From NCBI GenBank assembly GCA_947628375.1, contig CANQZQ010000003.1:1-34345 (forward strand): a DNA stretch of 34,345 bases. Reading direction: 5' to 3'. This DNA comes from an uncultured Bacilli bacterium. GTDB lineage: Bacteria; Bacillota_I; Bacilli_A; RF39; UBA660. Of the stretch, positions 2,710-26,363 are shown in pieces (within the stretch, counting starts at the first letter, position 1; each line of letters starts with the position of its first letter). The notes beneath the pieces are model-generated. The model saw nothing but the letters and a program-made list of their open reading frames with translations. It searched no databases and had not been told where the DNA came from. Both the position numbers and the translations under genes were made by a program.

Positions 2710-4455
2710 ATGCAAGCAATAAGTGAAGAAAAAATAAAAGAAATAAGAAATAGTGCTGATATTGTTAGTATTATCTCAAATTATATACCATTAAAAATGC
2801 AAGGCAAAAACTACTTTGGTGTCTGTCCATTCCATGATGATCATAATCCAAGTATGTCTGTTTCTAAAGAAAGACAGTTATATAAATGCTTTGTATGTAA
2901 TAAAGGTGGTAATGTTTTTAATTTTGTTAAAGATTATGAAAATATCTCTTATATTGAAGCTGTTGTTAAAGTAGCTAATTTAGTAGGTATTCCTATTACT
3001 TATACATATTCTAAAAAAAATGATGATAAATATAAAGAAGAATATGAAATAATGGATTTTACAACTAATATTTATCAAAATAATTTGAATAGTAAAGAAG
3101 GACTCAAAGCTAAAGAATATTTAGAGAAAAGAAATATTACATCAGATATAATTAAAGAATTTAGAATTGGTTATGCCCTTGATGATAATAAATATTTATA
3201 TAATGTTTTAACGAAAAAGAATTATAATCTAGATAAATTAGACGAACTTGGTTTAGTTAATAAAGATGGTCTTCAAGGGTATGATAAATTTCAAAATCGT
3301 ATTATGATTCCTATAACTAATTTAGATGGTCAAACTGTTGGCTTTACAGGAAGAATTTTTAATGGTGAAGATAGTGCTAAATATATTAATACTAAAGAAA
3401 CAGCTATATATAAGAAAGGTAATATTATATTTAATTATCATAATGCTCTTCCTTATATTAGAGAAGAAAAATGTGCCATTTTAGTTGAAGGCAATATGGA
3501 CGCCATAAGAATGTATTCATCTGGTGTTAAAAATGTTTTAGCTTTAATGGGAACTGCCATTACCAAAGAACAAATTGAAATATTAAAAAAATTAAGAGTT
3601 CCCATTATTCTTATGTTAGATAATGATAATGCGGGGGAAATAGCCACTAATAACATTGGCGATGAATTAATTAAAAATAATATTAAAGTGGAAGTTGTAA
3701 GACTAAAAAGAGCTAAAGATCCCGACGAATACATAGTTTCTTTTGGCATTGAAGCTTTTAAAGACGTAATAAAAAATAGTCAAAGTTACATAGATTATAA
3801 ATTAGAATATTTAAAAAATAATAAAAATTTAAATAATACTATTGAGTTAGTTAATTATATAAAAGATGTTTTAAAAATTTTAGATACATCAGATAATTTA
3901 ACTAAAGAATTAGTGTTAAAAAAAATTAGTAATGAATATAATATCGATTATGATATGTTAAAAAAAGAAGTTACTTTTAAAGAAGAAGTCAAAAAAGAAA
4001 ATCCTTATATTAGTAAAACAAAAAAAGATAAATATAAAGTTTGTGTTAATAATATACTATATTATTTAATGAGTGATAGTAAATATTTGAAAATATTTAA
4101 TAAAAAATTAGGCTTTTTAAAAAACGCTAAAGAAAGAAATTTAGTAACAGAAATTGAATATTATATTGATTTATATGGTAAAATAAATTTAGCGGACTTT
4201 TTAAGTTATGCTGAAAATGTAAAGAGTATTAAAGATATTGTTAATGAAGTAACAACTAGTGTCAGTTTTGATGATTTAGAAGAAGAAACATTTATGGATT
4301 ATTTAAATGTTTTAAATGAATTATTAATGAAAGAAAATATTATAGAAATAAAAGAAAAGATAAATAAGTCAAGTGATATTAATGAACAAATAGAAAATAT
4401 TAATAGACAAATTGATTTAACTAAAAAAATATTAGATGAAAAAAAGGAAGTGTAA
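2710..4455 (+). CDS. dnaG: DNA primase
   Basis: CPFHDD...CFVC zinc finger, KYINTKET, TOPRIM VEGNMD...DNDNAG, KDPDE; upstream of sigA. Confidence 0.97.
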   Translation: MQAISEEKIKEIRNSADIVSIISNYIPLKMQGKNYFGVCPFHDDHNPSMSVSKERQLYKCFVCNKGGNVFNFVKDYENISYIEAVVKVANLVGIPITYTYSKKNDDKYKEEYEIMDFTTNIYQNNLNSKEGLKAKEYLEKRNITSDIIKEFRIGYALDDNKYLYNVLTKKNYNLDKLDELGLVNKDGLQGYDKFQNRIMIPITNLDGQTVGFTGRIFNGEDSAKYINTKETAIYKKGNIIFNYHNALPYIREEKCAILVEGNMDAIRMYSSGVKNVLALMGTAITKEQIEILKKLRVPIILMLDNDNAGEIATNNIGDELIKNNIKVEVVRLKRAKDPDEYIVSFGIEAFKDVIKNSQSYIDYKLEYLKNNKNLNNTIELVNYIKDVLKILDTSDNLTKELVLKKISNEYNIDYDMLKKEVTFKEEVKKENPYISKTKKDKYKVCVNNILYYLMSDSKYLKIFNKKLGFLKNAKERNLVTEIEYYIDLYGKINLADFLSYAENVKSIKDIVNEVTTSVSFDDLEEETFMDYLNVLNELLMKENIIEIKEKINKSSDINEQIENINRQIDLTKKILDEKKEV

Positions 4456-7055: not shown

Positions 7056-9275
7056 ATGAAGAATAAAAAGAAAACAATAATGTTAATAATGGTAATAACA
7101 ATATCTATGGTATTATTAACATATAATAAGAGTTATTCATATAAAATGAATGATAATGAACCAGAAGAAACAGAAATAGAAAGAAAAGAATTTGGAATAT
7201 ATTTACAAGAAAGTGGAGAAAATTATACAGAAACAGATACATTTCCAATTCAAGGATATTTATTAAATACAACAAAAACAGAATGCCATGAATATGGAAC
7301 TAATAATGTAATACAAAACGCTGTAACCCAAAGTTTAACAAATGGAGTAATAGATGGAAGTATCATAGTAACAAGTCAAAAGAGTATGTATTGTAAAATA
7401 TATTTTGATAAAGATGAGAAACCAACAGTAACTTCATTTAATATAGCAGGTAAAACATCAAGTGGAGATAGTTTAAGTAATGGATTTACATATAATACAG
7501 GAGTATATACAATAAATTGGAATGATGGAGACGTAGCACAATATTGTTTAAGCAATAGTAATAACTCATGTACAGATTGGCATGCATTAAATAAAAGTCA
7601 AAAAACGAGTAAAACCATAACAATAGAGAATAATACATATACAAATACAGAAGGCCCAAAAACAATATATGCATATATAAAAGATAAAGCAAATAATATA
7701 TCAAGTATAACATCTATTTCTACTGCAAATATAACAGTAGATCAAACACCACCCAAAGTAACATTAACATTAACTGGAACTAGTGCTAGTCCATTTGTTG
7801 TTACAAGTGGATATACCCATACAACAAAGGTTAATTATACATCGACTATAACAGAAACAAATCCAGAAAGTTATTGTGTAGGAGAAAATTCATGTAGCAA
7901 TTATAGTGCATCATCTTCAACATCAATAAGAGGTAATACAACGATAGCTAACACAGAAATACTCCATACAGTAATAATAAATGTAAAAGATAAAGCAGGA
8001 AATGTAGGAAGTAAAACTCAATCGATAATATTAGACACACAAAATCCAATAATAACATTAAGTAATGAAAAAGCAACAGAAACAAGTATAACAGTAACAG
8101 TAAATGCAAGTGATACTCATGGCATTGCTGGTATAACATGTACAGCAGTAGGAAATGGTGGAACAAAAACTGGAACATATACAAATAATACATGTATATT
8201 TAGTGATTTAAAAGATGGAACACAATATACAATAACAGGAGAGGCAACTGATGCGTCGGGAAGAAAAGGAACAAGTAATTCAATAAGTGTAACCACTGTA
8301 AAAGTAAAATTAACAAGAGAAAATATTCCAAGCAAATTATTTAATGGAGTTAATCCAAATGGATTAAGCGATAAATTATTAGGTGACATGTACAGGTTTG
8401 TAGGTACGAAAGATACAGTAGATAATTGGATATGCTTTGGATATAATAATATAAATACTGATTGTAAAGCAGAAACAAGTGATTATATGTATAGAATAAT
8501 AGGAATTACTGAAGATGGTCAACTAAAATTAATTAAAAATACAGTTATTAGAGAGGGGACAACTTATAATTATGGATGGTTTGGTAATAATACAGGAGAA
8601 ATAACATGGCCACAATCAGACATATATAAAAGATTAAACGGTCAGATGGCAGGAATTACACAAGGATCTAATGGAAATACCAATTTATTTATAGATAGTA
8701 CTACAAGTAATGTACAATATATAAAATCAAGTGGTACAGAAGAACAAACGAAATGGTATAACAAAATAGATATTAAACATAAGTGGTTATATGGAGGAAT
8801 TTATCATAATTACGTAGGCCAAACTGCTGATAATATATACAAAATAGAGTCAGGTCAATTAGAAACTGTACAATATTATGGAGAAAATCCTAGTAAATGG
8901 GCGGAAAGCATTGAGGCAGCTATAGGATTAATGTATATTAGTGATTATTATTATTCATATGTACCGTACATGGGCGGTGGGACGGATTCATCGAGTGTAA
9001 ATTGTCATGATGCTGGGTGTATTGGTAGCTGGCTTTTTCTAAGTAAAAATGGTGAAGGAATCCAAACAGAGGAGGTGTATGAGTGGACGATGACACGTGA
9101 TGGATTTCCGTCTTCTGATAGCCCGCACGCCCATGTAGTTGGACAGAGTGGGAGAATGTATTACTTCAATCGTGCGTGGTCCGCTTTTGTTCGACCGGCC
9201 TTCTATCTTTACTCTAATATAAAAATAATTGATGGAAGCGGTGTTTCATCAGATCCATTTATAATCGCAGCATAA
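7056..9275 (+). CDS. Exported modular protein: signal/anchor, two Ig-like repeats, FN3-like domain, C-terminal DUF6273/C-type-lectin-like domain
   Basis: Basic+hydrophobic N-terminus; repeats YC...C...KDKANN...DQTPP and YC...C...KDKAGN...DTQNP about 100 aa apart; TETSITV...LKDGTQYTI; C-terminal YRIIGI...IGLMYISDY...EWTMTR...VRPAFYL...DPFII. Confidence 0.75.
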   Translation: MKNKKKTIMLIMVITISMVLLTYNKSYSYKMNDNEPEETEIERKEFGIYLQESGENYTETDTFPIQGYLLNTTKTECHEYGTNNVIQNAVTQSLTNGVIDGSIIVTSQKSMYCKIYFDKDEKPTVTSFNIAGKTSSGDSLSNGFTYNTGVYTINWNDGDVAQYCLSNSNNSCTDWHALNKSQKTSKTITIENNTYTNTEGPKTIYAYIKDKANNISSITSISTANITVDQTPPKVTLTLTGTSASPFVVTSGYTHTTKVNYTSTITETNPESYCVGENSCSNYSASSSTSIRGNTTIANTEILHTVIINVKDKAGNVGSKTQSIILDTQNPIITLSNEKATETSITVTVNASDTHGIAGITCTAVGNGGTKTGTYTNNTCIFSDLKDGTQYTITGEATDASGRKGTSNSISVTTVKVKLTRENIPSKLFNGVNPNGLSDKLLGDMYRFVGTKDTVDNWICFGYNNINTDCKAETSDYMYRIIGITEDGQLKLIKNTVIREGTTYNYGWFGNNTGEITWPQSDIYKRLNGQMAGITQGSNGNTNLFIDSTTSNVQYIKSSGTEEQTKWYNKIDIKHKWLYGGIYHNYVGQTADNIYKIESGQLETVQYYGENPSKWAESIEAAIGLMYISDYYYSYVPYMGGGTDSSSVNCHDAGCIGSWLFLSKNGEGIQTEEVYEWTMTRDGFPSSDSPHAHVVGQSGRMYYFNRAWSAFVRPAFYLYSNIKIIDGSGVSSDPFIIAA

Positions 9276-9323
9276 AAAATCGTCAAGGAAAAGACGTTAA
9301 AACCTTCATAGACTTAATCCTTG

Positions 9324-9347
9324 GGAAGAGAATTATCTCTTCCTTTT
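9324..9347 (+). terminator. Intrinsic terminator
   Basis: GGAAGAGA-ATTA-TCTCTTCC then TTTT. Confidence 0.8.
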
Positions 9348-9395
9348 GATTTATATTTATGCTATAATTTAAAAAGAATAAGAGTAAAGGGTATT

Positions 9396-10865
9396 ATGGA
9401 AAAAAAAGGACAAAATAAAAATATTATTTTTAAATTTTTAGGTAATGTAGTAAATGTTATAATATCTATTTTTTCTTATGCTATTCTTGGAATTAAAGTA
9501 TGTACAATTATTCCTTTAAAAAAACTTTTTAAACATAATAAAGATAATAAAGCATATCATTATAGTCCTAAAACATTAGCTAAATTAAATAAAGAATATG
9601 AAGAACTACTTGAAGATTTGAAAACTGAAGGGGCAACCAGAAGTAAAAAAGTAAATACTTATTATTATAAAGTGCGTTATAAAAATGGCAAAATTAAAAA
9701 AGGTAAAATGAATGGTTTCAGTAAACTTGATATTAATTCATTTTTAGTTAATGAAGGATATACAGTCTATAGTATTAAAACTAATACTTTGATAAATATA
9801 TTAAATAAAGATATTGGTAATAATAGTTTAAAAAATAGTGATTTAGTGTTCTTTTTAACTCAACTATCTACTTATTTAGAGTCTGGGCTACCTTTAAATG
9901 ATGCCATCAAAATATTAGGACGTCAAATGAAAGGAAGCAATTTAAAAAAAGTATTTAAAACTTTATCTTTTGAAATATCTTTAGGTTCTTCCTTTTCAAG
10001 TGCTTTAGAAAAGCTTGATGGGATGTTTCCCACTTTAGTTATAAATATGGTTAGAGCTAGTGAATCAAGTGGAACATTAATCGAAACATTAAAAGATTTA
10101 GCTATCTATTATAAAGAAATAGATGAAACTCATCGTGATACAATTAGTGCTTTAACATATCCTGCTATAGTTAGTGTTTTTGCTATTGGCGTTATTATCT
10201 TTATTCTTACTTTTATTATTCCTGAATTTGTTAAAACTTATAATTCAAGTAATATTGAATTAAATTCTTTTACGCAATTTGTTATTAATTTAAGTAATTA
10301 TTTTGAACAAAATATTTTTAATTTTTTATTCATTGTTATATTTATCGTTTTAATATTTATTATTCTTTATAAAAATGTTAAAGAATTTAAGAAATTTATT
10401 CAAACAATTCTAATGCATTTGCCAATTATTAAAAATGTTATTATTTATAATGAACTGGCGGTTATAACTAAAACTTTTGCTTCTCTTTTAAAAAATAATG
10501 TTTTTATTACTGATAGTATGGATATTTTAGCTAAAATTACTAATAATGAAATTTATAAAGAAATATTAGAAAACACTTATGAAAATGTTACTAAGGGTGA
10601 AAAGATTTCTACAGCTTTTAAAGACCATTGGGCTGTTCCTGAGGTTTGCTATTTTATGATAACAACTGGTGAATCAACAGGGGAATTAGCAGAAATGATG
10701 GAAAGAATAAGTAATTATTATCAAAGCCTACATAAAAGTATTGTTAAAAATTTAAAAACGCTTATTGAACCAATTTTAATTGCTTTTTTAGCTATTGTTG
10801 TTGGCGGTATATTAATTGCTGTTGTAGTACCAATGTTTCAAATGTATGGGGAGATGATGGAATGA
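9396..10865 (+). CDS. pilC: Type IV pilus/T2SS platform protein (PilC/GspF/ComGB family)
   Basis: QLSTYLESGLPL, VRASESSGTL, ALTYP, GESTGELAEMM, LIEPILI...VVPMF (two T2SSF domains). Start moved to ATG 9396 (AAAGGG SD; TGnTATAAT at 9360-9368). Confidence 0.9.
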   Translation: MEKKGQNKNIIFKFLGNVVNVIISIFSYAILGIKVCTIIPLKKLFKHNKDNKAYHYSPKTLAKLNKEYEELLEDLKTEGATRSKKVNTYYYKVRYKNGKIKKGKMNGFSKLDINSFLVNEGYTVYSIKTNTLINILNKDIGNNSLKNSDLVFFLTQLSTYLESGLPLNDAIKILGRQMKGSNLKKVFKTLSFEISLGSSFSSALEKLDGMFPTLVINMVRASESSGTLIETLKDLAIYYKEIDETHRDTISALTYPAIVSVFAIGVIIFILTFIIPEFVKTYNSSNIELNSFTQFVINLSNYFEQNIFNFLFIVIFIVLIFIILYKNVKEFKKFIQTILMHLPIIKNVIIYNELAVITKTFASLLKNNVFITDSMDILAKITNNEIYKEILENTYENVTKGEKISTAFKDHWAVPEVCYFMITTGESTGELAEMMERISNYYQSLHKSIVKNLKTLIEPILIAFLAIVVGGILIAVVVPMFQMYGEMME

Positions 10866-11623
10866 TTTATTTATTAATCTTATTAATTGGAGCCGTTATG
10901 GGTTCTTTCTATTTATGTATAGGGACGAGATTACCTCTTAAAAAAAGCATTTTAGGAAGAAGTGAATGCGATAATTGTCATGAAAAATTAAATTGGTATG
11001 AATTAATACCTATATTTTCTTATTTGTTTTTAAGAGGTAAATGTCATCATTGCCATAAGAAAATCAGCTTTGAATATTTTATTATTGAATTAATGACCTC
11101 TCTTTTATTTTTAGTTGGTTATCTCCATTTTGGTTTAAATATTCAATATTATATTTATTTAGTTATTGTCTCATGTGCTATCGTTATTTTTATTACGGAC
11201 TTTAAATATATGGTTATTTTAGATTCGACTTTAATTATAAGTAGTGTATTAATAATTATTTTAAAATATTTTGAAATAGGTTTTAAAAATACTTTATGGG
11301 CTATCCTTTTTGGTATATGTTTATTTTTTACAATGTATTTAATTAGATTATTTGGGAATTTTTTATTTAAAAGAGAATCTCTTGGGGGCGGAGATATTAA
11401 ATTAGCATTCTTAATTGGTCTTACTATAGGATATCCCATTATTGGCTATGAAATGGGACTAATATGTCTTATCTTTGCGGCTTTTTTAGCTCTTCCATAT
11501 GCCATTGCCGTTTTATATTTAAACAAAAAAAATGAACTACCCTATGGTCCATTTTTAATTGCTTCTTTAGTTATTATGTTTGTCTTTTATGATAAATTTT
11601 ACAATCTATTAGTCTTTTTTTAA
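10862..11623 (+). CDS. pilD: Prepilin peptidase (A24; PilD/ComC)
   Basis: GSF...RLP, RSECDNC...KCHHC, ITDFKY, GGGDIKL, LPYGPFL. Confidence 0.93.
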   Translation: MIYLLILLIGAVMGSFYLCIGTRLPLKKSILGRSECDNCHEKLNWYELIPIFSYLFLRGKCHHCHKKISFEYFIIELMTSLLFLVGYLHFGLNIQYYIYLVIVSCAIVIFITDFKYMVILDSTLIISSVLIIILKYFEIGFKNTLWAILFGICLFFTMYLIRLFGNFLFKRESLGGGDIKLAFLIGLTIGYPIIGYEMGLICLIFAAFLALPYAIAVLYLNKKNELPYGPFLIASLVIMFVFYDKFYNLLVFF

Positions 11624-24772: not shown

Positions 24773-26363
24773 ATGGAAAGACAAAATATTGTTCGCTCGG
24801 GGGGGGGTATTAAAAAGTAAATTAAAAGTTTTATGGGCCGTAATACTCGTAACACTTTTAATTGGAAGCCTGGGAATAAGTTATGCTTATTTTAATGCAG
24901 TAGATAGTAATAAAAGAACAGCAAATGTTATTTTAAAAGGTAAGACAGGATGTATAGATGTAAGCTTAACTGAAAACGAAGTAGAATTGCAATATAATTA
25001 TCCAATAACAGATGAATATGCCATAGATAATGTTAAACCAATAACAATAACAATAAAAAATAATTGTAGTACAGATGATGTCGATTATAGTTTAGTAATA
25101 ACAACATTATCAAATTATGAAGATGAAGATGAAAATAATCCAAATATACCAGCCAGTAAAATAAAGACAAAGATTGATAAGAATAATGAAACATTAATAG
25201 AAACTAATTTTTTAAATGAAATAAATAAATTAAAAGATAATACAACAACCAAGACATTAATAGATAACAAATTAAATAATATGAATGAGACAAAAGGATA
25301 TAGTCATAAAAATACATATGTAATAGATAAAGAAAAGATAACAAAAAATGATACAATAACATATGAGATATATATGTGGATAGATTACAATGAAGGGGGT
25401 ATAAATAATTCAACCAAGGGAAAGACATTTAAAAATATAATAAGTGTAGTAGTAAATAATCCAGAGGACAGTGTAAAAGCAGGAGTTGAACTAAATGCAA
25501 TGGAATATGTACTTGCTCAAAAACCAAATGGGCTAAGTGAAAAGCTACTAGGAGACATGTATAGATTTGTTGGGACTAAAGCAGATGTAAATAATTATAT
25601 ATGTTTTGGAACAACAAATAAAGATGAATGTACTGAGACAAGTGATTATATGTACAGAATAATAGGAATAACACAAGATGGAAAAATGAAGTTAATTAAA
25701 AATACAGCTATAAGGGAGGAAACCTTATATCAATATTACTGGCATAGTGACTTGAGAGCTGGAGCGACGTGGGAAGATTCTGATATATTTAAAAGATTGA
25801 ATGGTAATGATGTTAATCAATCTGGATCCTCTAATTTATTTATAGATAGTAAAACGAGTAATGTACAATATATAACGACTGGAAACAATTGGTATAACAA
25901 GATAGAGGACCACACCTGGAAATATGGTGATGTACCGAGTATAGATACTGATGCTGATAGTGTATATAGTATAGAGAGTAAGTTTGCTGATGTCATTCAA
26001 GCAAAGGTTGGATTAATATATGTAAGTGATTATTACTATTCGTATAGTATTTCGGGAAAAGATTCATCAGATACAAATTGCAATTACGCTGATCATTCTG
26101 TGAGATGTATTAATAGTTGGATGCATATAAGTAATAATGGAAAAACTGATGATTATCAAGTTGAATGGACAATGGATCGATTTGGTAAAAACTACAATTT
26201 TAATTACGTGACATATTTCATATCTGATAACGGAAGTGCTAGTGCTAATGAAAATGTATTGTACTCCAATGACTCCGTTCGCCCGGTCTTCTATCTGAAC
26301 TCTGATATTACATTATCTGGAGGGATTGGTAGTTTATCAGATCCATTTATAGTTGAAAAATAA
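24773..26363 (+). CDS. Exported protein with SipW-type signal and C-terminal DUF6273/C-lectin-like domain; out of frame at a G9 tract (putative phase-OFF)
   Basis: AGAGGA SD + ATG 24773 reads MERQNIVRSGGGIKK*; G8 would fuse it to the long frame (529 aa). LGISYAYF; C-terminal domain paralogous to 7056-9275. Confidence 0.8.
24799..24807 (+). repeat. G9 homopolymer (slipped-strand switch)
   Basis: cgctcGGGGGGGGGtatt; longest G run I saw in the window. Confidence 0.9.

Follow-up and report, generated by a model that had tools for sequence, protein, structure and literature searches.

An anciently diverged family of C-type-lectin-like domains with a candidate retroelement-varied tip in an uncultured gut Bacilli genus

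The stretch of DNA analysed here, which we call the window, covers positions 1 to 34,345 of contig CANQZQ010000003.1 from an uncultured Bacilli bacterium (assembly GCA_947628375.1; 1.30 Mb, 25.7% GC, 122 contigs, completeness 90%). Among otherwise housekeeping genes (dnaG, rpoD, lon, tig and the dnaK operon), it carries two genes, P0001 and P0002, that share a large C-terminal domain, and the mutational history of this domain is our subject. According to the open reading frame (ORF) list and its translation, P0001 (7056..9275, + strand) encodes a 739-aa protein with an N-terminal hydrophobic anchor, Ig-like modules, whose Big_3_3 and Big_13 matches are weak and under the Pfam cut-offs, and a C-terminal lectin-like domain. 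Its N-terminal module (7056..8330, +), marked by extreme use of A-ending codons, is followed by the ~314-aa domain (8331..9272, +) and, after the gene, by a conserved 3′ tail (9281..9353, +) with a small hairpin, an unpaired stretch and a terminator-like hairpin. P0002 (24789..26363, +; 524 aa) bears the same domain at 25500-26360 (+) behind an N-terminus unrelated to that of P0001. The initial annotation of the P0001 domain had proposed elevated local mutation, under purifying selection, across the whole ~300-aa domain.

An AlphaFold (AF2) model of the domain, made from 20 of the genome's own domain copies, reached a pLDDT of 90.6 and a pTM of.92. Its best structural match is the N-terminal domain (NTD) of the Thomasclavelia ramosa IgA peptidase (IgAse; 9qa6), with a VIA-align Z of 15.4 and an rmsd of 3.7 Å over 219 aa, and a Foldseek E of 2.2e-7. 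Ordinary C-type-lectin-like domains (CTLDs) come next at Z ~4-6, with 8q4e (Legionella Lcl) at 6.3 and TvpA at 5.1; a Z near 5 is weak by itself, and the match to the IgAse NTD lies far above such values. The model therefore predicts an enlarged C-type-lectin-like fold, which would form the ligand-binding C-terminal part of a surface protein. In the portion of the source consulted here (PMC12237041), the IgAse NTD is likewise given as a C-type-lectin-like core to which large segments are added, bringing it to about double the usual CTLD size. It differs from the domain studied here in sequence (15% identity) and in position, being N-terminal in a protease there and C-terminal in an Ig-repeat surface protein here, and no association with retroelements of the kind discussed below is described for IgAse in that portion of the source (PMC12237041).

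Using tblastn, the domain was found at 23 places in the genome, 12 of these copies being cut by contig ends, and it occurs in all 24 congeners searched, with 2-72 matches each, and in none of 16 searched genomes from other families of the same class. In two congeners, G003 and G019, 72 and 67 domain-profile matches occupy an unusually large share of genomes of ~1.1-1.4 Mb. None of the genome's 20 copies matches any Pfam family at E ≤ 1, an NCBIfam search of the domain returned no family, and a sequence-profile search of the PDB gave 0 hits. A distant homologue, P0035 (E 2e-30 against the query domain), contains DUF6273 (PF19789) at 492-645 with 32.6 bits, and DUF6273 sits in the C-terminal ~150 residues of some of the domain's distant homologues. 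The gathering cut-off of DUF6273 is reached by 0 of the genome's 20 copies, and the relation is transitive, through homologues such as P0035. We conclude that the ~23 copies in the genome are a genus-specific family of anciently diverged paralogs. Directly 3′ of P0001 lie a T2SS-F/PilC-like gene and then a prepilin peptidase (A24; window 9321-11623), and another distant homologue of the domain, P0070, bears a prepilin N-methylation motif; there are thus hints of a link between this lectin-domain family and a type IV filament.

The initial annotation rested on a 19-codon stretch of family-invariant residues, present as PNGLSDKLLGDMYRFVGTK in P0001 (8355..8411, +) and as PNGLSEKLLGDMYRFVGTK in P0002 (25524..25580, +). 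Its description of this motif was accurate: 18 of the 19 residues are identical (PNGLS(D/E)KLLGDMYRFVGTK), 12 of these 18 codons differ synonymously, and the G/C-containing codons that it singled out are indeed rare in core genes, accounting for.08 (GGG),.07 (CTA),.11 (AAG),.06 (AGG),.06 (ACG) and.06 (AGC) of the codons for their own amino acid. Near identity in protein is limited to this one motif, since the two domains as a whole share 141 of 314 residues (45%; BLASTP E 2e-64). A global alignment of the P0001 and P0002 domains yielded 145 identical residues over 277 aligned codons, and 51 of the 145 codons for identical residues differ synonymously, against expectations at full saturation of 54.9 (core codon usage) and 67.4 (usage of the domain itself). 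The domain is thus saturated at synonymous sites, as had been claimed, and not beyond saturation. Within the hand-picked 19 codons, the 12 differences compare with 7.3 expected at saturation under core usage (P = 0.011) and with 9.0 under the domain's own usage (P = 0.098), and their number is the upper tail of a post-hoc choice.

Conserved DNA islands between diverged loops are also real, as illustrated by 8682-8724 and 25833-25875, which are 93% identical over 43 nt. Over the whole domain, synonymous differences fall on 16 of 59 two-fold, 3 of 15 three-fold, 18 of 34 four-fold and 14 of 28 six-fold degenerate codons. The residues of the motif are rich in G, L, S, R, V and T, and those of the islands are mostly N, D, Y, F, Q and I with preferred A/T-ending codons, so that much of the island-and-loop pattern arises because synonymous differences track codon degeneracy. 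The islands would then be conserved residues whose codons are two-fold degenerate or strongly prefer an A/T ending. Codon homozygosity, computed per column over the conserved columns, showed site-to-site heterogeneity only, with a mean excess of.066.

Elsewhere in the genome, contig C37 carries its single reverse transcriptase (RT; RVT_1, 70 bits), which has YMDD and IGNMTSQ, presumably marks of the RTs of diversity-generating retroelements (DGRs). The same strand carries, upstream of the RT, a 102-nt template repeat (TR) that is rich in Asn codons and ends in TCGGTTCGCCCG, a MutS-domain-I protein (MSL; 31.2 bits, over the 20.6 cut-off) and a bAvd-like protein (PF22296 at E 3e-8 and 34.5 bits, under the 40-bit cut-off; NCBIfam NF033474 DivGenRetAVD at E 3e-9, under its cut-off), giving the order TR-MSL-Avd-RT. 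The TR was located through its Asn-rich frame beside the RT; BLASTN of 8900-9275 against the genome and C37 missed it because adenine sites are too dense. Orthologues of the RT occur in 24 of 42 genus genomes, this one counted. The RT of this genome has a shift of frame within an A-run, ~45 aa before the end of the orthologues, and the +2 frame continues the homologous C-terminus (L009, G000:C37:8499-11952, about 1387-1300, − strand), a frameshift that could be real, slippage or an assembly error. Because the RT frame is broken and every variable region (VR) here has some non-A mismatches, present DGR activity in this genome is doubtful.

Two further observations concern the surroundings of the cassette. 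A conserved small ORF of 98-110 aa without a Pfam match lies directly 3′ of the RT in three genomes (L009 1000-1296, −; L055 5881-6195, +; L056 1702-2034, −) and might also belong to the cassette. Immediately 5′ of the TR, a GC-rich stretch of ~55 nt (CCCTGGGTGC...GGTC; L009 3394-3454, −), cut by the end of contig C37, stands in AT-rich surroundings.

In the family alignment, a hypervariable block with the length and register of the TR lies just before an invariant VRPVFYL, and GC rises to.45 around 8900-9200. In P0001 this VR-equivalent spans 9096..9197 (+; 102 nt, aa 681-714 of 739), and with A at.18 and GC at.52 it is A-poor and GC-rich, like the VRs that match the TR. The VR-equivalent of P0002 (26178..26285, +; 108 nt) has A at.31 and GC at.37, and looks decayed. 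Homology between the TR and the VRs that match it closes with TCGGTTCGCCCG, which may have a role like that of an initiation of mutagenic homing (IMH) element; P0001 retains a degenerate form of it, TTTGTTCGACCG (9186..9197, +), 3 of 12 bases off as counted by eye, and P0002 has TCCGTTCGCCCG, 1 of 12 bases off.

Ungapped comparison with the TR showed changes concentrated at adenines in four paralogs, with 20 of 37 A and 8 of 68 non-A positions changed in the C36 VR, 24 of 37 and 11 of 68 in C15_3138, 25 of 37 and 13 of 68 in C81, and 23 of 37 and 16 of 68 in C53; for all four, the C37 TR is the best template genome-wide. TR adenines were replaced in the VRs of this genome by G (37), T (33) and C (22). 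The P0001 VR-equivalent, in comparison, differs from the TR at 27 of 37 A and 36 of 68 non-A positions, and that of P0002 at 28 of 65 non-A positions. No TR in the assembly (90% complete) corresponds to either window copy, and a genome-wide scan with the P0001 VR-equivalent found no template, the best non-self place having 16 non-A mismatches and being merely an A-rich stretch. In public reads (four runs from one sample, as short Logan contigs), no contig spanned 9016-9183. The features of a DGR target found for this family are thus a DGR-type RT, accessory proteins beside it and a VR at the C-terminal end of a C-type-lectin fold; a match to the TR except at adenines is seen, with A-bias, in four paralogs and is missing from the window copies, which are therefore either former targets or targets of an unassembled TR.

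Congeners show the same cassette in a cis layout, target-TR-MSL-Avd-RT, and one of them, G023, has a perfect pair (TR2/VR1) in which 14 of 27 A and 0 of 72 non-A positions are changed. That genome (L055, G023:C26:12000-24000) carries tandem TRs, at about 2750-2863 and 3715-3824, upstream of one MSL-Avd-RT set; TR2 is perfect at non-A sites against the adjoining VR, and TR1 matches neither VR. Judged from these alignments, the system is a DGR of the classical kind, specific for adenines and confined to about 100 nt. It is of the MSL type and works in cis, and probably also in trans on several of the paralogs. Hypermutation is documented for the ~100-nt VR only, which leaves the proposed mutator of broader reach than a classic ~100-bp VR without support.

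The 3′ tail of P0001 is a family feature, a tail of ~75 nt following 19 of 22 family genes, with P0002, C97 and C10 lacking it. The words TCATAGAC and TTGGGAAGA are common to these gene tails and to the downstream flank of the TR on C37, possibly by chance.

Ten paralogs, P0001 among them, share the ~430-aa N-terminal module, which offers a comparison within the same genes. Amino acid identity is 61-76% in this module versus 31-70% in the domain, dS is.23-.40 versus.64 to not computable, and dN is.16-.30 versus.24-.81. The fraction of synonymously different codons is.146 in the N-terminal modules, against ~.27 at saturation under their own usage, and.452 in the domain, against ~.465; by this estimate the N-terminal modules are only about half saturated. 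Similarities of the two parts are incongruent, with C42 and C28 being 76% identical in the N-terminal module and 35% in the domain, and the domain is borne on at least two unrelated N-termini. Together, the unrelated N-termini and the incongruent similarities imply that the two halves of one gene differ in age. Among the ten copies, dN/dS in the N-terminal module is ~0.7.

The codon composition of the two halves differs as strongly. All-codon GC at third positions (GC3) has a mean of.127 in 593 core ORFs (sd.027, max.241) and lies at.08-.17 in the family's N-terminal modules,.19-.32 in the domain before the VR and.23-.66 in the VR. At four-fold sites, the third base is A.31 (.315), C.09, G.06 and T.54 in the core; A.755, C.04, G.05 and T.15 in the N-terminal modules; A.47, C.10, G.15 and T.28 in the pre-VR domain; and A.19, C.18, G.25 and T.38 in the VR. 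The N-terminal modules are a real outlier against the core, their frequency of A at four-fold third positions (A3) of.755 exceeding the core 99th percentile of.52, and this A-ending bias could reflect very high expression, recent spread or homogenisation. In the domain, G- and C-ending codons are each two- to four-fold commoner. The shift is not purely adenine-specific, in agreement with the initial annotation, as C/(C+T) at two-fold sites is.185 in the domain versus.066. The contrasts in GC3 and dS that the annotation had proposed to check are likewise present, pre-VR domain GC3 being about twice the core and N-terminal values and dS several-fold above that of the N-terminal modules in the same pairs; we do not read them as hypermutation across the domain.

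Composition instead follows divergence. Among 20 copies, four-fold GC in the domain rises with protein divergence (rho.70) and A3 falls (rho -.82), the copies not being phylogenetically independent, and no such trend with the divergence of the domain is seen for N-terminal GC3 (rho.15, n = 11). A quick tree, the only tree used, gave the same pattern when composition was set against the length of terminal branches, both for this genome and for the sister species G005. Copies with TR-matching VRs are among the lowest in domain GC3. Thirteen copies from 10 other congeneric species, active-looking targets included (one further copy was removed by a filter), have a domain four-fold GC of.10 and A of.71, and the G023 targets beside the perfect TR/VR pair have a domain four-fold GC of.07-.08. 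This low domain GC beside a perfect pair argues against a spill-over of DGR activity as such into the domain. Together with the age of the copies, at 45% identity, and the low GC3 of the TR-matching ones, it speaks against an elevated mutation rate across the whole domain. Non-coding DNA of the genome is A.377, C.122, G.121 and T.380, and the hypervariable columns of the domain (A.35, C.11, G.18, T.36) do not depart from it significantly (chi2 P =.064), suggesting that most of the apparent GC enrichment is lost A/T-ending codon bias and not a push toward GC. Polarised synonymous flux was also tried as a test and rejected as non-discriminating: changes from A/T to G/C outnumber the reverse by 33 to 13 in the domain and by 71 to 24 in the N-terminal module, the same excess, probably an artefact of applying parsimony to sequences that are diverged and rich in A and T. 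The relatives compared are different species, with about 66-70% DNA identity at best.

A raised GC3 that, in many copies, exceeds that of all 593 core ORFs might suggest a domain recently imported from a higher-GC donor and not yet ameliorated, an origin that the initial annotation itself had named as fatal to its proposal. We find such an import hardly credible. All 24 congeners searched have the domain and none of 16 genomes from beyond the genus does, copies group by species in the quick tree, the copies of other species are A-rich and low in GC, and in paralogs that are synonymously saturated an imported signal should be gone.

GC-biased gene conversion among the paralogous domains could also lift GC3, with the conserved islands serving as recombination anchors. 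Recombination between paralogs, which had been raised as a possibility, does seem to have occurred at the level of modules, as the incongruence of C42 and C28 indicates, and A>G and T>C are the prevailing polarised synonymous changes. Within the domain, a GENECONV-like run-length permutation test gave P <.05 for 69 of 190 pairs against 9.5 expected; this test is confounded by clustered conserved sites, and the window pair itself has P =.09. Moreover, the more similar N-terminal modules should convert more readily and yet have the lowest GC3, and the least diverged domain copies lie below the diverged ones in GC3, all of which makes conversion a very unlikely source of the pattern.

We therefore favour, with a probability of about 0.62, a reading in which these genes are old paralogs with a DGR-varied tip of ~102 nt and the rise in GC3 is mainly decayed codon bias. 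On this account, the two window copies would be ancient paralogs whose synonymous sites were saturated by time alone and whose conserved motifs were kept by purifying selection. The only part written by a dedicated mutator would be the ~102-nt VR at 9096-9197, the DGR target site; following the known DGR mechanism, TR RNA would be reverse-transcribed with adenine errors and the cDNA would replace the VR up to the GC-rich boundary element, with the cassette acting in trans from contig C37 in this genome. The raised GC3 and lowered A3 would mostly represent the family's strong A-ending bias decaying in old, diverged domain segments, and the N-terminal modules would be younger, recombined or homogenised copies that are still A-biased.

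Several observations weigh against this reading. G-ending codons exceed the non-coding expectation (four-fold G.147-.18 versus.121), and in the nine most diverged copies the composition is distinct from that of non-coding DNA (chi2 P = 1e-5). A 49:51 mix of N-terminal-like and VR-like composition fits the domain better (residual.015) than a mix of N-terminal-like and non-coding (.054), and A3 drops in two stages, first at the boundary of the domain and then over the ~90 codons that precede the VR. Domain GC3 is raised in the sister species G005 as well (.22 over 16 copies). The P0001 VR-equivalent is A-poor and GC-rich like the TR-matching VRs, yet has no template, and old decay is not obviously the right explanation there. 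Finally, decay of bias in one half of a gene only would depend on a module recombination that is itself inferred, with no event observed.

The better fit of the mix and the stepwise fall of A3 are what would be seen if, in this species and its sister, the whole domain received an extra, partly adenine-directed error-prone input of which selection left the synonymous changes, for example through occasional long cDNAs made by the DGR RT from target mRNA or through error-prone repair around the homing site. Both dS and dN of the domain exceed the N-terminal values in the same genes, and the replacements of TR adenines in the VRs resemble the gains of G and T in the domain. We nevertheless consider this input unlikely, as the near-tripling of C/(C+T) at two-fold sites (.066 to.185) is something that sense-strand adenine mutagenesis cannot yield. 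Domain GC is low in the TR-matching copies and in G023 with its perfect TR/VR pair; TR/VR homology spans about 100 nt only, the RT frame is broken in this genome, and recent polarised changes are alike in N-terminal module and domain. Somewhat less probable again is the specific form in which the DGR of this species and its sister is leaky, its machinery or a coupled repair occasionally rewriting far beyond the 100-nt VR, for instance through long error-prone cDNAs primed in the conserved 3′ tail of the mRNAs. If true, synonymous sites of the domain would drift to a VR-like composition along a 3′-to-5′ gradient, and whole-domain divergence and the birth and death of paralogs would be driven by the DGR.

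The favoured reading, of old paralogs with a DGR-varied tip, places the family beside known systems. The Treponema denticola DGR has its VR, as in our model, at the C-terminal tip of a C-type-lectin fold, that of the variable protein TvpA (PDB 2y3c), which is among the structural matches (Z 5.1, 141 aa). One RT/TR there serves several non-adjacent paralogous surface proteins, seven remote targets being listed for Treponema (PMC5758913). Unlike that system, the domain here has no detectable sequence relation to TvpA and is about twice as large, the family has many more members (about 23 copies in this genome, and as many as 72 matches in one congener), and most copies fail to match the TR. MSL is reported in 16 of 372 DGRs, always with avd (Wu et al. 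2018, NAR; PMC5758913), and the small MutS-domain-I protein, Avd and RT of the cassette here resemble those MSL-containing DGRs, among which the Legionella DGR is named there; what differs is the TR-MSL-Avd-RT order, the host, an uncultured gut genus of ~1 Mb and 26% GC, and the broken RT frame.

A domain-wide hypermutator would have been novel as a mechanism of mutation, and the evidence does not point that way. What emerges instead is one more case of adhesin-like proteins diversified by a DGR, in a gut bacterium with a reduced genome. The contrast within one gene, where strongly A-biased modules stand beside an unbiased domain, is usable for studying the decay of codon bias or the reach of DGR mutagenesis. 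Beyond the window, the domain defines a genus-wide family of large, predicted C-type-lectin-like surface domains, unannotated and without a Pfam match, that makes up a sizeable share of these ~1-Mb gut genomes.

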